The position numbers and the translations under genes are program-made. From IMG/VR virus record IMGVR_UViG_3300008251_000129: a stretch of DNA of 7,703 nucleotides, one strand, 5' to 3'. This stretch comes from a virus. Below, one piece after another: positions 1,962 through 7,703 of this stretch (the first letter of the stretch is position 1; every line of letters starts with the position of its first letter). The notes below the pieces were generated by a model, which did not search any database, was not told the origin of the DNA, and saw only the letters and a program-made list of their open reading frames with translations.

Positions 1962-2362
1962 TATTTAACCCCCATGAAATTCAAAACAAAACGAGTCGTA
2001 CCACATTCAATTAAGAATTGAACCATGTTGGGAATATCGTACAAATTCATATAATGACCGATTTTAGGCGGGATATTAGAAAAAACATCATTCACAATAC
2101 TAGTGACATTCAAATCAACAAGTAACGCCTTAGCCGTACCCATTGCAATTTGCATCATCCATATTTGAAACTCTATTTTACCTAACGTGAAATACAAAAT
2201 GATATTTGCAAACATGCGCTCAAAAAAAGATGGAATACCATAAAAAGCATCACGAATATCAGTTATATTTTGACCAATAGACTCAAAAAAGCCCACTTCA
2301 TCGGCAGCGAACACGCCCGAGCTAACCAGTAATAACGGGATGATATAGATTAATTTATTCAA
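1961..2362 (-). CDS. gVI-like minor coat / virion-cap membrane protein (assigned by position and hydrophobicity)
   Basis: Lies between gIII and gI as in all inoviruses. Has hydrophobic segments. TTG start preceded by AGGAG at 7 nt, overlapping the gIII stop as TTGA. Confidence 0.7.
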   Translation of the reverse strand: MNKLIYIIPLLLVSSGVFAADEVGFFESIGQNITDIRDAFYGIPSFFERMFANIILYFTLGKIEFQIWMMQIAMGTAKALLVDLNVTSIVNDVFSNIPPKIGHYMNLYDIPNMVQFLIECGTTRFVLNFMGVK

Positions 2363-4044
2363 AATTTAACTCCTAAGACAATTAAGAAACCAGTCACGCC
2401 AATCATGAACCAGAGAATATGTTGAATACCAAATTCAGTAGAAAACTTCTCAAGCCAATGAGAGCCTAAATCTAAATTAACGCCTTTTATATCAACCATG
2501 TTAGGCACATAACCACTATCAGAAACGGTCAAACTACCAGTAGAAAAAACACCTTTTACTTCATCCATTAAAGCCTGCAAGTCCCCTTTTGAACTTTCGA
2601 TTTTTCCCTCAATAGCTGTAATAGTTTCAGCACCTAATACCTCAGCAAAAGGATCGCTTCCAGTAGTAGGCAAGTTATAATTCTTTACCTCTGTTTCTCC
2701 ACCTAAACTTTCTAAACCTGCTTTAATATCATCAAGCTTTCCATCTCTTTTAGCGTCACGTTCAGCTTGTCTATCAGCTAGTGATTGTTCTCTTGCTGTT
2801 AAATCATCAACAGAGTTTTTTACTTTTCCTAAACCAGTAGAAACTGCCCCACCTAATTCATCTAAGTTTTTTGATAAGTCTGTTGAGGCTTTCCTTATAT
2901 CTCCCTGTATGCCAGAAAGTAATTTTTCACTTGTTGTATTACTTGCATCAACAGGGGTTAAAGTATCAGGATTAAAATCTTCATTTGGTGTAATTGGAGA
3001 GGCAAAAATTGAATCTGAAATACAATAGAATTCATCGTCAACATATCCACAACCATCGGGATAAGTCCCATCAGGGTTAATATGCTTGGTTTCATCCTGT
3101 GGACAATATGAAGTGCCGTTTATTTTTCTACAAGAGCCCTCAACGCTTGGATCAAATTGAGAATCTTCTGGTAAATCAAAATCAGGCTTTTGATAATCAC
3201 TAGGGTCATCACCAAAACAAACAAAATTCTGTTTACCGCTTACAGAATCAGTAACACTTCCACAACCAGGCTGACAAACACCACTAGAACTACAAACATC
3301 ATTAGAATCAACAAGGCAAACAGTGGTTGAAAATCCATTGCTTAGATATGGCTTACAAATTGGTTCGGGAGGTGGCTCTGGCAAATCGGGAAGCTCAGGT
3401 AAATTATTAGTAGCACAATCAGGCCAAGAAGGTTTTTGTTTCATATTTAAACCTGTCTCACCACATTTATCATATGGAATTGTAGGGGTAATACGGGCGC
3501 AAACACTAGAAGATTCAAATTCAGGATCACCTAAATAACCATCATTACAGATCTTAATCCTACAAACATTTTCACTTAAATTATTTAAATCTGGTATTAA
3601 ATCAGGATAGTTATCATCATCACAGAAGGGACCTGTTTCATATGTGCCTGTATATTTAAGCTGTTCACCGCCTGTCTGGTAATAACAACTTTTGGCACTA
3701 TAACAAAGTGTCCAGTTTGCACTCAAATATGCATAAGTTGAAGCGTCACTGCGAGTTTTAACTCCATCAATTAATGAAAACGGAGGGGATAAGTCTTCTG
3801 TTCTCCATGAAAAGCCTTTTATTCTCGCATCTTCTAAAATTTTTAATTTCCATTGTTCTTTGACACTTGAAGCACATTCAAACATTGTATGACCGCGCCC
3901 CGTAATGGCTTTTGAATCGATTGAGCAAGTAACACCTATTTCTATCATTGGTTGTTTACAATTATTTAAGTTTTCAGCACAAACATTTGCATATATATCT
4001 AAACTAAAAAAAAGAGCTGTAAAAACAGCCAAGTATCTAACCAT
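2359..4044 (-). CDS. gIII-like adsorption / minor coat protein (561 aa from ATG 4044)
   Basis: ATG at 4044 is preceded by GGAG at 8 nt and opens a signal peptide MVRYLAVFTALFFSLDIYA. There are 22 Cys in the N-terminal two thirds and a proline linker LPELPDLPEPPPEP. The C-terminal membrane anchor is ILWFMIGVTGFLIVLGV. Its position after gVIII is canonical. The ORF-track start at 4128 is a TTG with no ribosome-binding site. Confidence 0.85.
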   Translation of the reverse strand: MVRYLAVFTALFFSLDIYANVCAENLNNCKQPMIEIGVTCSIDSKAITGRGHTMFECASSVKEQWKLKILEDARIKGFSWRTEDLSPPFSLIDGVKTRSDASTYAYLSANWTLCYSAKSCYYQTGGEQLKYTGTYETGPFCDDDNYPDLIPDLNNLSENVCRIKICNDGYLGDPEFESSSVCARITPTIPYDKCGETGLNMKQKPSWPDCATNNLPELPDLPEPPPEPICKPYLSNGFSTTVCLVDSNDVCSSSGVCQPGCGSVTDSVSGKQNFVCFGDDPSDYQKPDFDLPEDSQFDPSVEGSCRKINGTSYCPQDETKHINPDGTYPDGCGYVDDEFYCISDSIFASPITPNEDFNPDTLTPVDASNTTSEKLLSGIQGDIRKASTDLSKNLDELGGAVSTGLGKVKNSVDDLTAREQSLADRQAERDAKRDGKLDDIKAGLESLGGETEVKNYNLPTTGSDPFAEVLGAETITAIEGKIESSKGDLQALMDEVKGVFSTGSLTVSDSGYVPNMVDIKGVNLDLGSHWLEKFSTEFGIQHILWFMIGVTGFLIVLGVKF

Positions 4045-4090
4045 TTTTACAACTCCAAAAAACGAAAAAAGTACAAAAAGTTTAATTTTA

Positions 4091-4171
4091 TTAAGCGGAA
4101 ACAACGCCAGAGTAAACACCAAGGGCAAAAACTAAACCAATGGTGCAACCTAAAATTATCCCAAGAAACAC
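4091..4171 (-). CDS. Candidate 26-codon hydrophobic peptide (V/M)FLGIILGCTIGLVFALGVYSGVVSA, possible gVII/gIX-type minor virion protein
   Basis: Not in the ORF track because it is too short. GTG directly follows the gVIII TAA stop (TAAGTG). The peptide is entirely one transmembrane-like segment. It fills the otherwise empty gVIII-gIII gap. Confidence 0.35.
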   Translation of the reverse strand: MFLGIILGCTIGLVFALGVYSGVVSA

Positions 4172-4390
4172 TTACTTTTTAAGCCAGTAAAGAATCATAC
4201 CTACACCGAACATAATGCCCGCAAGACTGATTAAAGCCGTTGCAAGTAATGTTTGGTTTGTATTAGCAGCTGCAGATAAAGCCGCAATATCAGCAGCTAA
4301 ATCAGCTTTTGCTACAGCAGACATACCTAGAAAACTAGAAGCAACTGCAACTTTAGCGCCGTACTTTTTAGCCATTTTACGTAATTTCAT
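4172..4390 (-). CDS. gVIII: Major coat protein, gVIII type (72-aa precursor, predicted 43-aa mature)
   Basis: Signal peptide ending AKA|D. Mature peptide has an acidic N-terminus (DLAADIAAL), a hydrophobic core (LISLAGIMFGVGMILYW) and a basic C-terminus (LKK). AAGGA Shine-Dalgarno at 5 nt. Confidence 0.9.
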   Translation of the reverse strand: MKLRKMAKKYGAKVAVASSFLGMSAVAKADLAADIAALSAAANTNQTLLATALISLAGIMFGVGMILYWLKK

Positions 4391-4412: not shown

Positions 4413-4625
4413 TTATTTCCTCCCAAGCCATTTGAGGAATCGCCCCAAAACATGACCAGAGAAAAAGGTAGTTAGTAAGACACCATCTACTTGCAAAGCA
4501 ACAGCGGTATCTAACTCAGTTAATGGATTACTTACGGGTTGTTCGTAAGCTATCCAATTCGTTGTACCCGAACATGTTCCACTTGGTAATATTGGTTCAC
4601 TACAAACCAGAACATATTCAGTCAT
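4413..4625 (-). CDS. 70-aa small protein with hydrophobic C-terminal segment and basic tail, possible minor virion protein (gVII/gIX positional analogue)
   Basis: Lies between gV and gVIII, where Ff phages encode gVII and gIX. The C-terminus VLLTTFFSGHVLGRFLKWLGRK is coat-like. The start is 3 nt after the gV stop. Confidence 0.65.
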   Translation of the reverse strand: MTEYVLVCSEPILPSGTCSGTTNWIAYEQPVSNPLTELDTAVALQVDGVLLTTFFSGHVLGRFLKWLGRK

Positions 4626-4628
4626 TTG

Positions 4629-4964
4629 TTAAGCACTCTTTTTATGCTGATTTGTTTCATCACGTACAAAGCCAACACAGATAGATTTTTGAATATCTTT
4701 AGGGTCTGGCTGTAAAACTAGAGTTACTTTTTCACCAAAACGCATCATTGCCATTTCAGGCCAGATAGCAGGGTCAGGAGTAAAACCAATAGTCGCAACA
4801 TCAAAGCCAGCTTCCTTACGTTCCATATATCCATTTTTAAAATGAGGAGTACATGGTTTTAAGTAAGTAATATTTGCAAATTCATAAGGTGAACCTTTAC
4901 CCTTATCAGAAGTGCCTTTCATGTGAGTAATACCAATAACGATTACAGTAATTTCTTGTGACAT
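4629..4964 (-). CDS. gV: ssDNA-binding protein, gV-like
   Basis: Canonical position. The motif KGTSDKGKGSPYEF resembles the DNA-binding loop of M13 gpV (RSGVSRQGKPYSL). AAGGA Shine-Dalgarno at 7 nt. Confidence 0.75.
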   Translation of the reverse strand: MSQEITVIVIGITHMKGTSDKGKGSPYEFANITYLKPCTPHFKNGYMERKEAGFDVATIGFTPDPAIWPEMAMMRFGEKVTLVLQPDPKDIQKSICVGFVRDETNQHKKSA

Positions 4965-4975
4965 TTTCTTATCCT

Positions 4976-5281
4976 TTAGTTTGAGTGAATAACAGGCTGA
5001 CCATTATTTTTCATGAATTTAAAATGGCTCAACCTTGTTTCTTGATTAAAAATTCCTTTGAAGCGTAAGCCCCCTGCTCTTGGTGAGCGATTAGCAACTG
5101 AATCAAAATCTTGTTTTGTTGCGGTAACTATTTCGTGACAACATTCACAACGGGCAACACCTAACTTAAGGTAAAAGTCTTGGCGTTCGTGGCAGTTACC
5201 ACAGTGAATATCTTCAATATGGTAAAGTTCATCAGCATATTGGTAATCAGTCATATCTATTGAAAGTTGAGATTCATGCAT
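4976..5281 (-). CDS. 101-aa zinc-ribbon protein of unknown function (CxxC...CxCC)
   Basis: Contains CGNCH (residues 27-31) and CECCH (residues 45-49). The start codon overlaps the gII stop (TAATG), implying translational coupling. Ff phages have no counterpart between gII and gV. Confidence 0.75.
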   Translation of the reverse strand: MHESQLSIDMTDYQYADELYHIEDIHCGNCHERQDFYLKLGVARCECCHEIVTATKQDFDSVANRSPRAGGLRFKGIFNQETRLSHFKFMKNNGQPVIHSN

Positions 5282-5661
5282 TAGAAATTAACCACTTTAA
5301 GAGGACGAATATCAAAATCTACATGTTCGAGATTTGAAACGGGTTCAACGTACCAGTTAGGGCGTTGAGCAGAAAAATCAATTTCGATAGCTTTACAAAA
5401 TGGGATAATGTTCGTTTGAGAATCGGCAGATAAATTTTGAAGTTGAGCTTTGCTCATACCAGTTCCCTCAATCAAAGAATCAAGCATGCGTTTAAATGTT
5501 TGGCGAGAAGTCATAGAGCGATAAACTTTATCGTAACCCTCGTTAAGCAAGCGCATGTAATACGCATAAACACGATCTGCTTTTGCGTAAGAAAAACCTT
5601 TTTTAGTTTTAGTGAAAAAAACTTTTTTTAATTTGTCGTGAACCTTATCTTCATTTTGCAT
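5281..5661 (-). CDS. gX: Candidate gX-like protein: in-frame internal start within gII (C-terminal 126 aa)
   Basis: Met314 (GEGVNMQNED) aligns with the M13 gX start (EGDSMNIYDD). It is preceded by GGTGAGGGTGTAAAT, i.e. GAGG at 8 nt, comparable to GAGGGGGATTCA before M13 gX. Confidence 0.55.
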   Translation of the reverse strand: MQNEDKVHDKLKKVFFTKTKKGFSYAKADRVYAYYMRLLNEGYDKVYRSMTSRQTFKRMLDSLIEGTGMSKAQLQNLSADSQTNIIPFCKAIEIDFSAQRPNWYVEPVSNLEHVDFDIRPLKVVNF

Positions 5662-6600
5662 ATTTACACCCTCACCTTTCAGCGCCTCTAACAATGGTTG
5701 GAACGAGGCATTCCAAAGGGCTTCAATTAAGCAAACCCCATCTTTTAACATTTTCTTTTGTAGGCGAACCCAATCACTTAATAAAGTTGGGTACCCCATT
5801 CTTTTAAACCAATCTTTTTTTAATCGCGCCTCAAAGCGCACGAGCCCATCAGACCAAAGCAATAATTTTTCATCTTTTAAAACTGCTAAACGTTTTTGTA
5901 AGTCAGCATTAGAAGGATTTTTACCTAATTGAAAATCAAGCTTTGAAATCTCGTTTTGTACTTCTGAATATTTTAAATACACTTTTAAAACACGTTTTTT
6001 AGAAGTCATAGAAGTTAAATAAGTCGTGGTTTCAAAATCAGATGAATGGACAGAACGACGCATTTGACCGTTAGCCACATTGCGTAAAAATTTGATAAAT
6101 GAAAGTTGGTGAGAGCTTTCTTTAAGTCTTGCTGAATAAGTTGCATCAATAATATCAACCGTTGTTCTAGGCCAATCAATTGCATCAACTAAATCAGGGT
6201 AAGCCTCTTGGAGACTGCGAAGCATGTGAAAAGATCCATTTTCAATACTTGTAGAACCAAAAACATTATGACCTTGCATGATTTTCGCAGGACTTGCTTT
6301 AATTTCTAAACGAGGGTCGCCCATTGAATTTGAATCCCAAATTTTCATAGCGATACCAGAGAACGAACTAGGCAAAGATTCCCAAGGAGTATTAAGTTCG
6401 ATGTGGTCAACCTTGTAACCTTTCCCACCTTTCAAACCATCCCAACATTCAACATAACTAATTCTTCGAGCGGAAAGATTGAAGCCAAAAACAGAAAGCA
6501 TCTCAAATTTTAAATGGCGCTCACCAGACTCACATACCGTTAAGTATTCATCTTTAAAAAACACTGATAATTTTAAATAATCAATCATTTTCGAGTCCAT
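5281..6600 (-). CDS. gII: Rolling-circle replication initiator (nickase), homologue of Ff gene II protein
   Basis: Multiple blocks match my recall of M13 gpII. These are NLSARRISY/NLSARTVEY, WESLPSSFSGIAMKIW/FESLPTHYSGIAFKIY and EIKASPAKIMQGHNVFG/EIKASPAKVLQGHNVFG. Further blocks are IDATYSAR/IDATFSAR, LRNVANGQ/LRNVSNGQ, GLVRFEARLK/GLVRFEARIK, LLNEGYDKV/LVNEGYDSV and DFSAQRPNWYVEPV/DFSSQRPDWYNEPV. An alternative start is ATG 6588 (MIDYL, aligning with M13 MIDML). Confidence 0.93.
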   Translation of the reverse strand: MDSKMIDYLKLSVFFKDEYLTVCESGERHLKFEMLSVFGFNLSARRISYVECWDGLKGGKGYKVDHIELNTPWESLPSSFSGIAMKIWDSNSMGDPRLEIKASPAKIMQGHNVFGSTSIENGSFHMLRSLQEAYPDLVDAIDWPRTTVDIIDATYSARLKESSHQLSFIKFLRNVANGQMRRSVHSSDFETTTYLTSMTSKKRVLKVYLKYSEVQNEISKLDFQLGKNPSNADLQKRLAVLKDEKLLLWSDGLVRFEARLKKDWFKRMGYPTLLSDWVRLQKKMLKDGVCLIEALWNASFQPLLEALKGEGVNMQNEDKVHDKLKKVFFTKTKKGFSYAKADRVYAYYMRLLNEGYDKVYRSMTSRQTFKRMLDSLIEGTGMSKAQLQNLSADSQTNIIPFCKAIEIDFSAQRPNWYVEPVSNLEHVDFDIRPLKVVNF

Positions 6601-6661: not shown

Positions 6662-6680
6662 AGAAAATAATTTATTTGTT

Positions 6681-6686
6681 TATAAT
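6681..6686 (+). promoter_or_regulatory. Perfect -10 hexamer TATAAT upstream of the plus-strand regulator gene (weak -35)
   Basis: TATAAT sits 32 nt before ATG 6718. There is no good -35; the nearest candidate, TAGTCA, is 20 nt away. It is back-to-back with the gII promoter. Confidence 0.4.
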
Positions 6687-6717
6687 AAAATTACGTAACT
6701 TGATAAAGAGCAATAAA

Positions 6718-6903
6718 ATGCCAACTAAACACATCGACGAAAAAACATGGAAATACGTTAGTGATGCAACAATAAAAGCCATAATCCAAACGAAAGAACA
6801 CTTCAAAGAAAGTGATATTTTAAGGATGCTAATCACTAAAGGATTCGAATCTATAACCGAGGATGACTATGAAAAAGAGGCAAGAAAAAAGAGGAAAAAA
6901 TAG
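6718..6903 (+). CDS. Small (61 aa) putative ribbon-helix-helix-type transcriptional regulator, divergent from gII
   Basis: It is the only plus-strand ORF not embedded in a larger gene. ATG 6718 has AAGAG upstream, and the TTG 6676 extension is unlikely. The pattern is a short N-terminal strand (KHID), a helix (EKTWKYVSDATIKAII), a loop and a second helix (SDILRMLITKGFESI), then a basic tail KKRKK. The fold assignment is inference only. Confidence 0.6.
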   Translation: MPTKHIDEKTWKYVSDATIKAIIQTKEHFKESDILRMLITKGFESITEDDYEKEARKKRKK

Positions 6904-6937: not shown

Positions 6938-6963
6938 GGGAGCACTATTAAAGAGGTGCTCCC
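6938..6963 (-). other. (+)-strand origin of replication: nick-site hairpin, Ff type
   Basis: The phage-sense sequence is GGGAGCAC-CTCTTTAATA-GTGCTCCC, against f1 GAGTCCAC-GTTCTTTAATA-GTGGACTC. Both have an 8-bp stem and the loop core TCTTTAATAGTG is identical. By analogy, the nick falls in CTTT^AATA, between window positions 6950 and 6949 on the minus strand. Confidence 0.85.
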
Positions 6964-6979
6964 ATGCGTTTTCACCTAA

Positions 6980-7001
6980 CAACTGTATTTAAATACAGTT
7001 G
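6980..7001. other. Perfect 22-bp palindrome CAACTGTATTTAAATACAGTTG
   Basis: Eleven-bp arms with no mismatch. It lies upstream (phage sense) of the nick hairpin, where Ff phages carry the (-)-origin and packaging hairpins. It could also terminate the plus-strand regulator transcript. Confidence 0.6.
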
Positions 7002-7025
7002 AATGCTGTTTTCCGAAAAAATCGG

Positions 7026-7045
7026 GAAATCAGGGAACTGATTTC
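7026..7045. other. Hairpin GAAATCAG-GGAA-CTGATTTC (8-bp stem, 4-nt loop)
   Basis: Read by eye. It is part of the hairpin cluster in the large intergenic region. Confidence 0.5.
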
Positions 7046-7054
7046 GGGCATAGA

Positions 7055-7200
7055 ATGCCAAAAACAGGAGAAAAAGCGGGAGGCCGTGAGAACGGCAAAA
7101 ACAAGAAAAGGCATGGCGAGGAACGCCACAAAAGACCGGAAAAACAAAGAAAGGTCAAAACACTAAAGGAAATGATGCAAGCATCACAAAGCTTATAACT
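7055..7200 (+). other. T-depleted, purine-rich, GC-elevated block; coding status unresolved
   Basis: The 80 nt at 7061..7140 contain only 2 T and are about 79% purine, with GC near 50%, unlike the AT-rich rest of the genome. The block carries a 47-codon basic ORF on the plus strand (7055..7198, MPKTGEKAGGRENGKNKKRHGEERHKRPEKQRKVKTLKEMMQASQSL). The 63-aa ORF 7030..7221 lies on the minus strand. Neither has a convincing ribosome-binding site. Confidence 0.5.
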
Positions 7201-7535
7201 TCGCAAGCTCAGCAAAGGCATCCTCCGGACTAAGGGCGTTAATTCAAAAGAGGGGCGGAATTGAAATCAAGGCGTTGAGACTGCAAAACCTCTTCTAGCT
7301 GTCTATTTTTCTTCTCTTTTGGTTTGTTAATAACGATTAATTTCTTCGTGGGATGCTATCCAAGCAGTCATTAAGTAGCGTTCTTTGGGTGGGTTGGTAC
7401 TCTGCGAGGCAAATTCGAAAGAGATCCTTTTTAGATCACTTCCGCGAGCCACGTTTATTGTACAAATTTACCGCGGTTTGTGGTGAACGGGTATATTAAT
7501 TATGATACTCGGGTATCGCTAAATGGTCCTATTAT

Positions 7536-7571: not shown

Positions 7572-7582
7572 CTATGTTAAAT
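7572..7582 (+). other. Isolated XerD-arm-like 11-mer CTATGTTAAAT, inverted relative to the dif-like site 89 nt away
   Basis: 10/11 match to the consensus XerD arm TTATGTTAAAT. The adjacent would-be XerC arm (7555..7565) is degenerate. Confidence 0.5.
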
Positions 7583-7703
7583 ACTTCGTTCGTGGGCTTC
7601 GCCGATTTTACTCTCTGCGTATGGCACCTAGAATCGTTCGAGGGCTTCGCTATTATCTCTCACGACTCAAGGCTAAACATAAGTGTGCATTATGCGCAGT
7701 TAG
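7581..7703. repeat. Terminal redundancy copy 2 (identical to 1..123)
   Basis: Same 123 nt as the window start. Confidence 0.95.
7672..7700 (-). other. Same dif-like site as 92..120 (copy within the terminal redundancy)
   Basis: Identical sequence by virtue of the 123-bp overlap. Confidence 0.7.

Follow-up and report, generated by a model that had tools for sequence, protein, structure and literature searches.

The gene orf101, here also called X, encodes a 101-residue protein with a predicted zinc ribbon and occupies positions 4976..5281 of the minus strand (stop codon included) in an inovirus genome, IMG/VR record IMGVR_UViG_3300008251_000129. The whole stretch of DNA analysed, 7,703 nucleotides long, is referred to below as the window. 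The gene lies in the replication module, between gII, which encodes the rolling-circle initiator, and the gene for a single-stranded DNA (ssDNA)-binding protein (gV). Judging from sequence comparison, it founds an unannotated protein family whose carriers are mobile elements with ssDNA replication intermediates. Homologues located directly after Rep_1 initiators in small plasmids provide new comparative evidence connecting X with rolling-circle replication. The replication module of inoviruses is viewed as an invariable set of three, pII, pX, and pV; the protein family and this arrangement of the module are, in our opinion, both new, without amounting to a categorically new system. We tentatively propose that X is a zinc-ribbon accessory, coexpressed with Rep, that may act at the replication or ssDNA stage of rolling-circle replication, a reading that we consider quite possible, though short of probable.

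A family of small C4 zinc-ribbon proteins

The first-pass annotation of this DNA, made from the letters alone, had described a 101-residue open reading frame (ORF) with the motifs CGNCH and CECCH 14 residues apart, read as a four-Cys zinc-ribbon signature, and a start codon overlapping the gII stop. All of these features are present, on the minus strand. The first knuckle, C27-G-N-C30 (5192..5203, minus strand), and the second, C45-E-C47-C48 (5138..5149, minus strand), can be read directly from the sequence; each is followed by a histidine, and 14 residues separate C30 from C45. The overlap TAATG (5279..5283, minus strand; the window bases read CATTA) consists of the gII stop TAA at 5283-5281 and the orf101 start ATG at 5281-5279. 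Among the 29 stop-free stretches of at least 60 codons in the six frames of the window, orf101 alone contains the pattern CxxC-x(8-25)-CxxC, and shuffling of its residues recreates the pattern in 343 of 200,000 trials (0.17%); the motif therefore represents more than chance.

Six close homologues of orf101, 69-77% identical, were found in metagenomes. An exhaustive hidden Markov model (HMM) search of 1.84 billion representatives, together with a profile search, brought the number of family members to 20, with lengths of 66-121 residues, and the scan of a single metagenome added one further locus; family counts refer to about 20 sequence clusters. Members are known from metagenomes only: no homologue was detected in INPHARED (megablast and tblastn), PLSDB, IMG/VR, or the GTDB representative genomes. 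Seven positions are invariant across the 20 sequences (I22, C27, C30, F36, C45, C48, and R73) and two are nearly so (D58 and R68). In the second knuckle C47 is variable, so the likely ligands there are C45 and C48, and the site is formed by the two CxxC pairs. The family consensus reads hIxxLxCxxC...DFYL...CxCCh...T..D..SV..RSPRAxILRF. Its last part, a basic tail motif recognised by family conservation (RSPRAxILRF), appears in orf101 as R65-S-P-R-A-G-G-L-R-F74 (5060..5089, minus strand). The charge of orf101 is unevenly distributed, residues 1-26 being acidic (-7.2) and residues 61-101 basic (+5.6). A β-clamp-binding motif (QL[SD]LF) was considered by eye in the ILRF tail and rejected, as the Q is absent and position four does not fit.

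Structure prediction points to the same fold as the sequence. The AlphaFold2 (AF2) model computed from the 20-sequence alignment has a core (blocks 21-60) with a predicted local distance difference test (pLDDT) score of about 87-92, while the tails are less certain; a model based on 5 sequences was of unusable quality (pLDDT 49). In the model, strands 25-27/32-34 and 36-39/42-45 flank the knuckles and form a two-hairpin ribbon. Thus, the hallmark of the fold class, two CxxC knuckles each at a β-hairpin turn, is found in both the sequence and the predicted structure, and the assignment of orf101 to the C4 zinc ribbons is well supported by the invariant Cys pairs and the model.

Six pairwise codon comparisons among four lineages gave ratios of nonsynonymous to synonymous substitution (dN/dS) of 0.10-0.20 for orf101 at saturated dS (1.1-1.7); in the same lineages, the ratio was 0.05-0.12 for gII and 0.14-0.32 for gV. 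The orf101 ratios are similar to those of gII and lie below most of those of gV. Judged by these comparisons, together with the ORF list, the homologues, and the AF2 model, orf101 is a genuine coding sequence subject to purifying selection. Two other ways of accounting for the frame were rejected. A frameshift fusion with gII would need a long open frame upstream of the start; in all 12 loci the orf101 frame is open for only 0-11 codons there, and orf101 is therefore not a gII frameshift extension. Nor is orf101 the inovirus gene X (gX): it lies in a different frame, does not match G2P_X_C, and coexists with a separate gX candidate.

The family could not be placed in any curated collection. 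Searches of Pfam, NCBIfam, PHROGs, and PADLOC, with the single sequence or with all 20 members, returned nothing at significant or curated thresholds; several generic ribbon families gave weak, sub-threshold matches to family members. The best match to a curated family was phrog_2834 (function not known), which was hit by 9 of the 20 members with a best E of 0.0019 and over the second knuckle only. Foldseek found no match at E ≤0.001 in PDB or BFVD, returning generic zinc ribbons only, and a literature search yielded no description of such a gene. The first-pass annotation had been unable to assign a family; this stands as far as curated families are concerned, but a nearest relative is detectable, namely the zinc-binding domain (ZBD) of primase-helicases described below.

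Association with rolling-circle initiators

Genomic contexts were counted in 13 lineages, with family members P0006-8, P0011, and P0015 left out of the count. In nine of these lineages X immediately follows an HUH initiator, which belongs to one of two Rep families (Phage_CRI or Rep_1); in the other four it does not. A survey of synteny in related inoviruses, which the first-pass annotation had suggested, recovered the order gII - X - RstB-type gV in seven inovirus lineages (the window, L001/2, L003/4, L005/6, L007, L017, and L018). The stop of gII and the start of X overlap by exactly 1 nt (TAATG or TGATG) in five of them (the window, L001, L003, L007, and L018), and this overlap is kept although the N-terminus of X differs and its length varies from 77 to 121 residues. 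In all inovirus loci X is separated from gV by 6-30 nt, the ssDNA-binding gene always being next downstream.

A second type of context connects X with Rep_1 initiators of the pC194/pUB110 type, which are directly followed by X in three small-plasmid lineages. The first is a 2.87-kb circular element, a plasmid or satellite, which was assembled independently three times (L012-14) as circular permutations with 30-55-nt end overlaps, and in which X overlaps the rep stop by 13 nt. It encodes a long Rep_1 protein, the X homologue, a 94-residue protein that is possibly of the ribbon-helix-helix type, and ORFs of 96 and 47 residues (function not known). The 96-residue protein was considered as a gV-like ssDNA-binding protein and rejected (hhalign probability 0.3%, no PDB or Pfam match). 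The second lineage (L015/16) is a 79-84%-identical relative of this circle with the same order, Rep_1 then X. In the third (L020), a Rep_1 gene (E 5.9e-68) is followed by a 10-nt gap and then X. In the Rep_1 elements X has its own Shine-Dalgarno sequence, and its downstream neighbours are a non-coding stretch of about 300 nt and unrelated genes.

The nearest sequences cross these contexts: the Rep_1-linked P0009 is closest to the gII-linked P0019, and the plasmid-borne P0013 to the gII-linked P0012. Since the contexts are intermixed in sequence space, the gene has moved between replicon types. P0013, which shares 52% identity with the copy in the inovirus locus L017, lies at about 10001-10255 of L008/L009. 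The plasmid concerned is 31 kb or longer and carries genes for IncFII RepA, a Mrr-like nuclease, topoisomerase III (TopoIII), and SSB. P0013 belongs to an array of small ORFs that share its strand and are mostly membrane-like (function not known).

The first-pass annotation had placed X where Ff phages have nothing. This is correct: in the Ff and IKe records the region of the gII match carries no annotation besides gII and the in-frame gX, and in the deposited phages that come closest in gII or in RstB-type gV (Dulem virus 52, Inovirus D_HF5_61, and VCY-phi) the ssDNA-binding gene directly follows gII. Even among the relatives of the window phage X is not universal. In L026 (IMGVR_UViG_3300028829_007242), whose gII and gV are 74.7% and 61% identical to those of the window, the gene is absent and the rest of the module is retained. 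The 135-nt spacer between gII and gV of L026 (3866-4000) translates to ...YKNNGIRLTHSN (...KNNGIRLTHSN), which can be aligned with the final 12 codons of X and in which the G, H, S, and N that are invariant in the clade are retained. Short as it is (tblastn E 0.53), this segment is probably a 12-codon remnant left by deletion of X. Because of this loss, X is to be regarded as accessory rather than core, and dispensable in at least one lineage. The first-pass annotation had named lack of conservation in relatives as an observation that would speak against its reading; the loss in L026 goes part of the way in this direction, the 20-member family being otherwise conserved. Taken together, the contexts and the loss indicate, at the level of sequence comparison, that X is an accessory, non-essential module moving between replicon types.

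The loci also bear on the expression of X. A proposal of the first-pass annotation, that X is translationally coupled to gII, is supported by the stop/start overlap in five lineages and by the lack of a good Shine-Dalgarno sequence 5-10 nt upstream of orf101, where only a distant GTGG is present at -13 to -16. It does not extend to the whole family, given the extra ORFs between gII and X in L005, the 119-nt gap between the two genes in L017, and the Shine-Dalgarno sequences of the Rep_1 elements. We infer that orf101 itself is coupled to gII. Promoter and terminator scans around orf101 gave nothing above shuffled expectation, and neither operator-like repeats nor RNA structures were found near it.

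The extra ORFs in L005 (1853-2211; also present in L006) are an observation in their own right. These two small frames between gII and X are chained by stop/start overlaps and encode an acidic 82-residue protein and a 36-residue Cys-rich peptide with CVICGKFISCGECPDC, both unrelated to X. The gII-gV junction thus behaves, so far as the compared sequences indicate, as an accessory-gene slot.

Similarity to the zinc-binding domain of primase-helicases

The only specific similarity of X is to the ZBD found at the N-terminus of the T7-type primase-helicase gp4 (PF08273), a domain that recognises a template trinucleotide on ssDNA (PMC2910064, PMC5517523). Two independent searches led to it. A profile search of PDB returned residues 7-58 of T7 gp4 at E 0.13-0.37. 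A tblastn search of 50,697 phage genomes with the distant member P0019 gave a single match (E 0.3, 44% over 49 residues), which falls in the 5' portion of a primase/helicase gene from a Yersinia phage of the T7 type and corresponds to the ZBD of gp4A. The N-terminal segment of this gp4, from phage vB_YenP_Rambo, scores 3.1e-11 on PF08273. It should be noted that the record of this phage confines its primase/helicase annotation to the short form, starting at 11194; the 61 in-frame codons upstream that encode the ZBD (OK042080.1 11011-11193; L028 2474-2656) are unannotated, and full-length gp4A is omitted.

The similarity was then quantified with hhalign against an alignment of 13 diverse gp4 segments, ZBD plus linker, taken from phage records. 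The X family matched with a probability of 73.8%, an E of 2.9e-5, and a score of 32.7 over 53 columns, residues 19-71 of X being aligned with residues 7-60 of gp4. When all non-Cys columns were permuted 200 times, the mean score was 13.7 (sd 3.2) with a maximum of 23.5, and none of the 200 permutations reached 32.7; reversed alignments scored 13.2 and 17.0. The close clade and the distant members, each compared separately with the gp4 ZBDs, gave 28.5 and 30.1. The ribbon core by itself scored 23.1, which means that the post-ribbon segment contributes as well: X residues 50-71, running past the second knuckle into the tail motif, add to the match with the corresponding segment of gp4. This profile-profile similarity beyond the Cys scaffold lends moderate, not conclusive, support to remote homology.

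Both proteins have C4 ribbons, with CxxC-x14-CxxC in X and x15 in gp4, followed by a charged flexible segment, and both are found in the context of replication genes. In contrast to gp4, X is a stand-alone protein of 66-121 residues without an RNA-polymerase or helicase domain; no primase domain (TOPRIM RNA-polymerase) was found in the window or in the neighbouring genes. X also has invariants of its own (I22, F36, and the RSPRAxILRF tail), and the clade to which the window's X belongs has an extra C-terminal helix ending in HSN. In our opinion, no detectable relative stands nearer to X than the primase ZBD, which is a plausible remote homologue, while X is not a member of PF08273 as this family is currently defined.

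Proposed role and alternative explanations

We propose the following course of events. Ribosomes that finish gII, or the in-frame gX, would reinitiate at the TAATG overlap, and the level of X would consequently be proportional to that of the initiator. The protein would lack catalytic activity and serve as a ZBD-like adaptor, either at the origin or priming complex or on the plus strand that is displaced. There, the ribbon may interact with ssDNA or a primer-template, and the basic tail with DNA or with a partner; Rep, the ssDNA-binding protein, and the host primase are possible partners. X would in this way modulate initiation or termination by Rep, or priming of the complementary strand, and the outcome would be a tuned balance between complementary-strand synthesis, yielding the replicative form (RF), and ssDNA accumulation. 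A similar role is played by pX of Ff and IKe, a small protein of the inovirus replication module that comes from the same mRNA region as pII and regulates the RF/ssDNA balance; pX, however, is an in-frame C-terminal part of pII without a zinc site, whereas orf101 occupies a separate frame and has no sequence relation to it. In architecture X may also be compared with YacG, an inhibitor of DNA gyrase, which likewise combines a small C4 ribbon with a conserved tail that could dock on a host replication enzyme. The two differ in their tail motifs, which are unrelated, and only one X member gave a match (E 0.19, not significant).

Several observations weigh against this proposal, the support for which is entirely computational. 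Four divergent members reside in arrays of small ORFs without an adjacent Rep (L008-11, L019, L024, and L025); L008-11 is the plasmid with IncFII RepA, TopoIII, and SSB, and the others are short contigs. About 2,265 Rep_1 plasmids, the known Ff phages, and Vibrio inoviruses lack X, and so does L026, a relative with a 75%-identical gII. The family is not globally basic, the isoelectric point being 5-6.7 in most members and 7.6-8.7 in six. Other points concern the relationship to gp4. PF08273 (Zn_Ribbon_Prim) was matched by none of nine distant members at E ≤10 and, among the matches listed, by none of the 20 at E ≤1. LIM half-domains scored slightly better than gp4 in the PDB search (E 0.007-0.08). 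T7 gp4 was outside the top 50 of the Foldseek PDB search, in which the best matches were ribosomal zinc ribbons with a TM score of about 0.28; the flexible tails of the model depress all of these scores. Finally, GSSD after the first knuckle and D-G-H before the second, which belong to the template-recognition region and are invariant in the 13 gp4 sequences, are not kept in X, where H-E-R-Q and L-G-V are aligned with them and only the Gly is shared.

Moreover, since the gII-gV junction accepts other small ORFs, as in L005, position alone could reflect a permissive cargo slot. X might then be generic mobile-element cargo with an anti-defence, anti-SOS, or host-modulating function, expressed early with Rep merely for convenience. 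We think this somewhat unlikely, but it deserves to be taken seriously: the family is rare and patchy, is spread over three kinds of element, including the plasmid arrays just mentioned, and is dispensable in L026; the slot holds two unrelated small ORFs in L005/L006; and an acidic N-terminus combined with a near-neutral isoelectric point is unusual for a DNA-binding protein. What tells against cargo is the regularity of the position, immediately after an initiator of either of two HUH families in 9 of 13 lineages and, in inoviruses, always directly before the ssDNA-binding gene, together with the lack of similarity to any PADLOC or anti-defence family and the fact that the one specific similarity of X is to a domain of a replication protein. 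The first-pass annotation had likewise suspected a role in replication, strand switching, or regulation from the coupling to the initiator. The replication link has gained from the homologues after Rep_1 initiators and is weakened by the four divergent members beside no Rep; the role itself, in replication or strand switching, is at present a proposal derived from context and similarity.

It is also conceivable, although in our estimate unlikely, that X, as Mu Com or P2 Ogr do, regulates gene expression by binding mRNA, DNA, or RNA polymerase. Its targets would then be the ssDNA-binding and coat genes downstream, controlled at the level of translation or transcription, or a lysogeny switch. 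Like Com and the Ogr/P4 Delta proteins, which are phage-encoded accessory regulators of about 60-100 residues with four Cys, X is a small zinc-binding phage protein, and it has a basic tail. The Shine-Dalgarno sequence of gV starts in the X stop codon, and the 6-30-nt distance to gV is kept even where X is separated from gII. Weak matches to Zn_ribbon_Com (one of the 20 members, E 0.02) and to the TFIIB-type Rrn7 ribbon (two members, best E 0.003) point in the same direction, but all ribbon matches of this kind are far below curated cut-offs, and Ogr_Delta is not among the matches listed. The genomic context differs from that of Com and Ogr. In the Rep_1 plasmids, X is followed by non-coding DNA and unrelated genes, and the scans for operator-like repeats and RNA structures near X were negative.

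A narrower version of the replication proposal starts from the primase similarity: X would be a stand-alone, catalytically dead descendant of a primase ZBD, kept beside initiators as a ZBD decoy or priming switch, which recognises sites on the displaced strand or competes with the ZBD of the host primase. We consider this version decidedly unlikely.

A role in integration or excision through XerCD/dif, as an accessory factor of an integrative mobile element exploiting Xer (IMEX) with a function like that of XafT of TLC-phi, is very improbable. What led us to consider it is the dif-like site of the window phage and the related L003/L004, and the neighbouring RstB-type protein, which belongs to Pfam CTX_RstB (PF07459); RstB of CTX-phi is needed for integration. 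RstC of the CTX-phi type and XafT-like IMEX factors are, moreover, encoded by small accessory genes next to rstA/rstB-type genes in dif-integrating inoviruses. By contrast, at the stringency used, no dif-like site was found in X-bearing elements other than the window and L003/4, the Rep_1 circles included; X is not similar to known Xer factors, and L026 retains the rest of the module without X. RstC and XafT-like proteins are not known to have sequence similarity to X or a zinc site.

That orf101 is a chance ORF or a decaying remnant, as its loss in one relative and the absence of a known family might suggest, has a practically negligible probability in view of the dN/dS of 0.10-0.20 in six comparisons (at saturated dS), the four Cys invariant in 20 homologues, the confident AF2 core, and the improbability of 101 open codons arising by chance in DNA of 36% GC.

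Other features of the inovirus genome

The window comprises a 7,580-bp inovirus genome followed by a 123-nt terminal overlap, positions 1-123 being identical to 7581-7703; this perfect direct repeat identifies it as a circular (or concatemeric) genome written with overlap. No deposited phage is near it at the DNA level, and no Rfam family matched anywhere in the window. The GC content is mostly about 36% and ranges from 31 to 43% in 500-nt windows. The maximum of 43%, against 31-39% elsewhere, is reached at 7001-7500, a non-coding segment with positive GC skew that may contain the origin or a packaging signal.

The minus strand carries every structural and replication gene. The flanks of X, which the first-pass annotation had named gII and gV, were borne out by Pfam, with the refinement that gV encodes an ssDNA-binding protein of the CTX RstB type. 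The Ff-type initiator gene gII (5281..6600, minus strand) matches Phage_CRI at 2.6e-45 and G2P_X_C at 1.5e-17, and its product is about 40% identical to gII of IKe, Ff, and some saliva inoviruses. The listed ORF opens with MDSKM..., while all homologues, called at 434-435 residues, open at a MIDY/MIDQ methionine; the true start is thus probably M5 at 6588, giving 435 residues. An in-frame candidate for gX, modelled on the gX annotations of Ff and IKe, lies within gII (5281..5661, minus strand). It would encode 126 residues from an internal ATG at gII residue 314, preceded by GGTGAGGGTGTAAAT / GGTGAGGG, would include the G2P_X_C domain (gII residues 334-422), and terminates together with gII, at the TAA overlapping the orf101 ATG.

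Downstream, an 11-nt spacer (4965..4975, minus strand) separates orf101 from the functional gV, the junction reading AAC TAA AGGATAAGAAA ATG. The Shine-Dalgarno sequence TAAAGGA of gV begins in the orf101 stop codon (4976-4978) and extends into the spacer. The RstB-type gene itself (4629..4964, minus strand) matches CTX_RstB (PF07459) at 6.7e-13 and phrog_929 at 3.7e-21, and its product is CTX/VCY-like. It is followed on the same strand by a 70-residue ORF (4413-4625) and by the genes for the major coat protein (4172-4390), a pIII-like protein (2359-4128), an Ace/pVI-like protein (1961-2362), and Zot/pI (513-1961).

The sole convincing plus-strand gene (6676-6903), divergent from gII, encodes a 75-residue protein that matches phrog_5219 (E 9.8e-20, function not known) and is possibly a phage regulator; two terminator-like hairpins follow it (6938-7001). 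A non-coding dif-like XerC/XerD site is present at 98-117 and 7678-7697 (minus strand). It reads GCGCATAATGCACACTTATG, or, written in parts, GCGCATAA-TGCACAC-TTATG, with 0.01 matches expected by chance, and recurs in the related L003 (245-264) and L004 (271-290). This site suggests that the phage integrates at dif as an IMEX.

Implications

The role of X is directly testable, since the gene is small and non-essential, mutational targets are defined (the four Cys, R68, R73, and F74), and both a natural deletion variant (L026) and a 2.87-kb plasmid context exist. Should X prove to be mere cargo, it would still represent a new mobile-element protein family, and it would mark the gII-gV junction as an accessory-gene slot.

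If, on the other hand, X is a ZBD decoy or priming switch, the element itself would decide between priming to double-stranded DNA and keeping ssDNA for packaging or transfer, and X would be a portable strand-switch module common to inoviruses, Rep_1 plasmids, and some larger plasmids. In the models of ΦX174 and pT181, conversion of ssDNA to double-stranded DNA is carried out by the host priming machinery only (PMC5714925). An element-encoded modulator of complementary-strand priming would, if true, be new. More broadly, X could provide rolling-circle elements with a handle of their own on complementary-strand priming or on Rep function.

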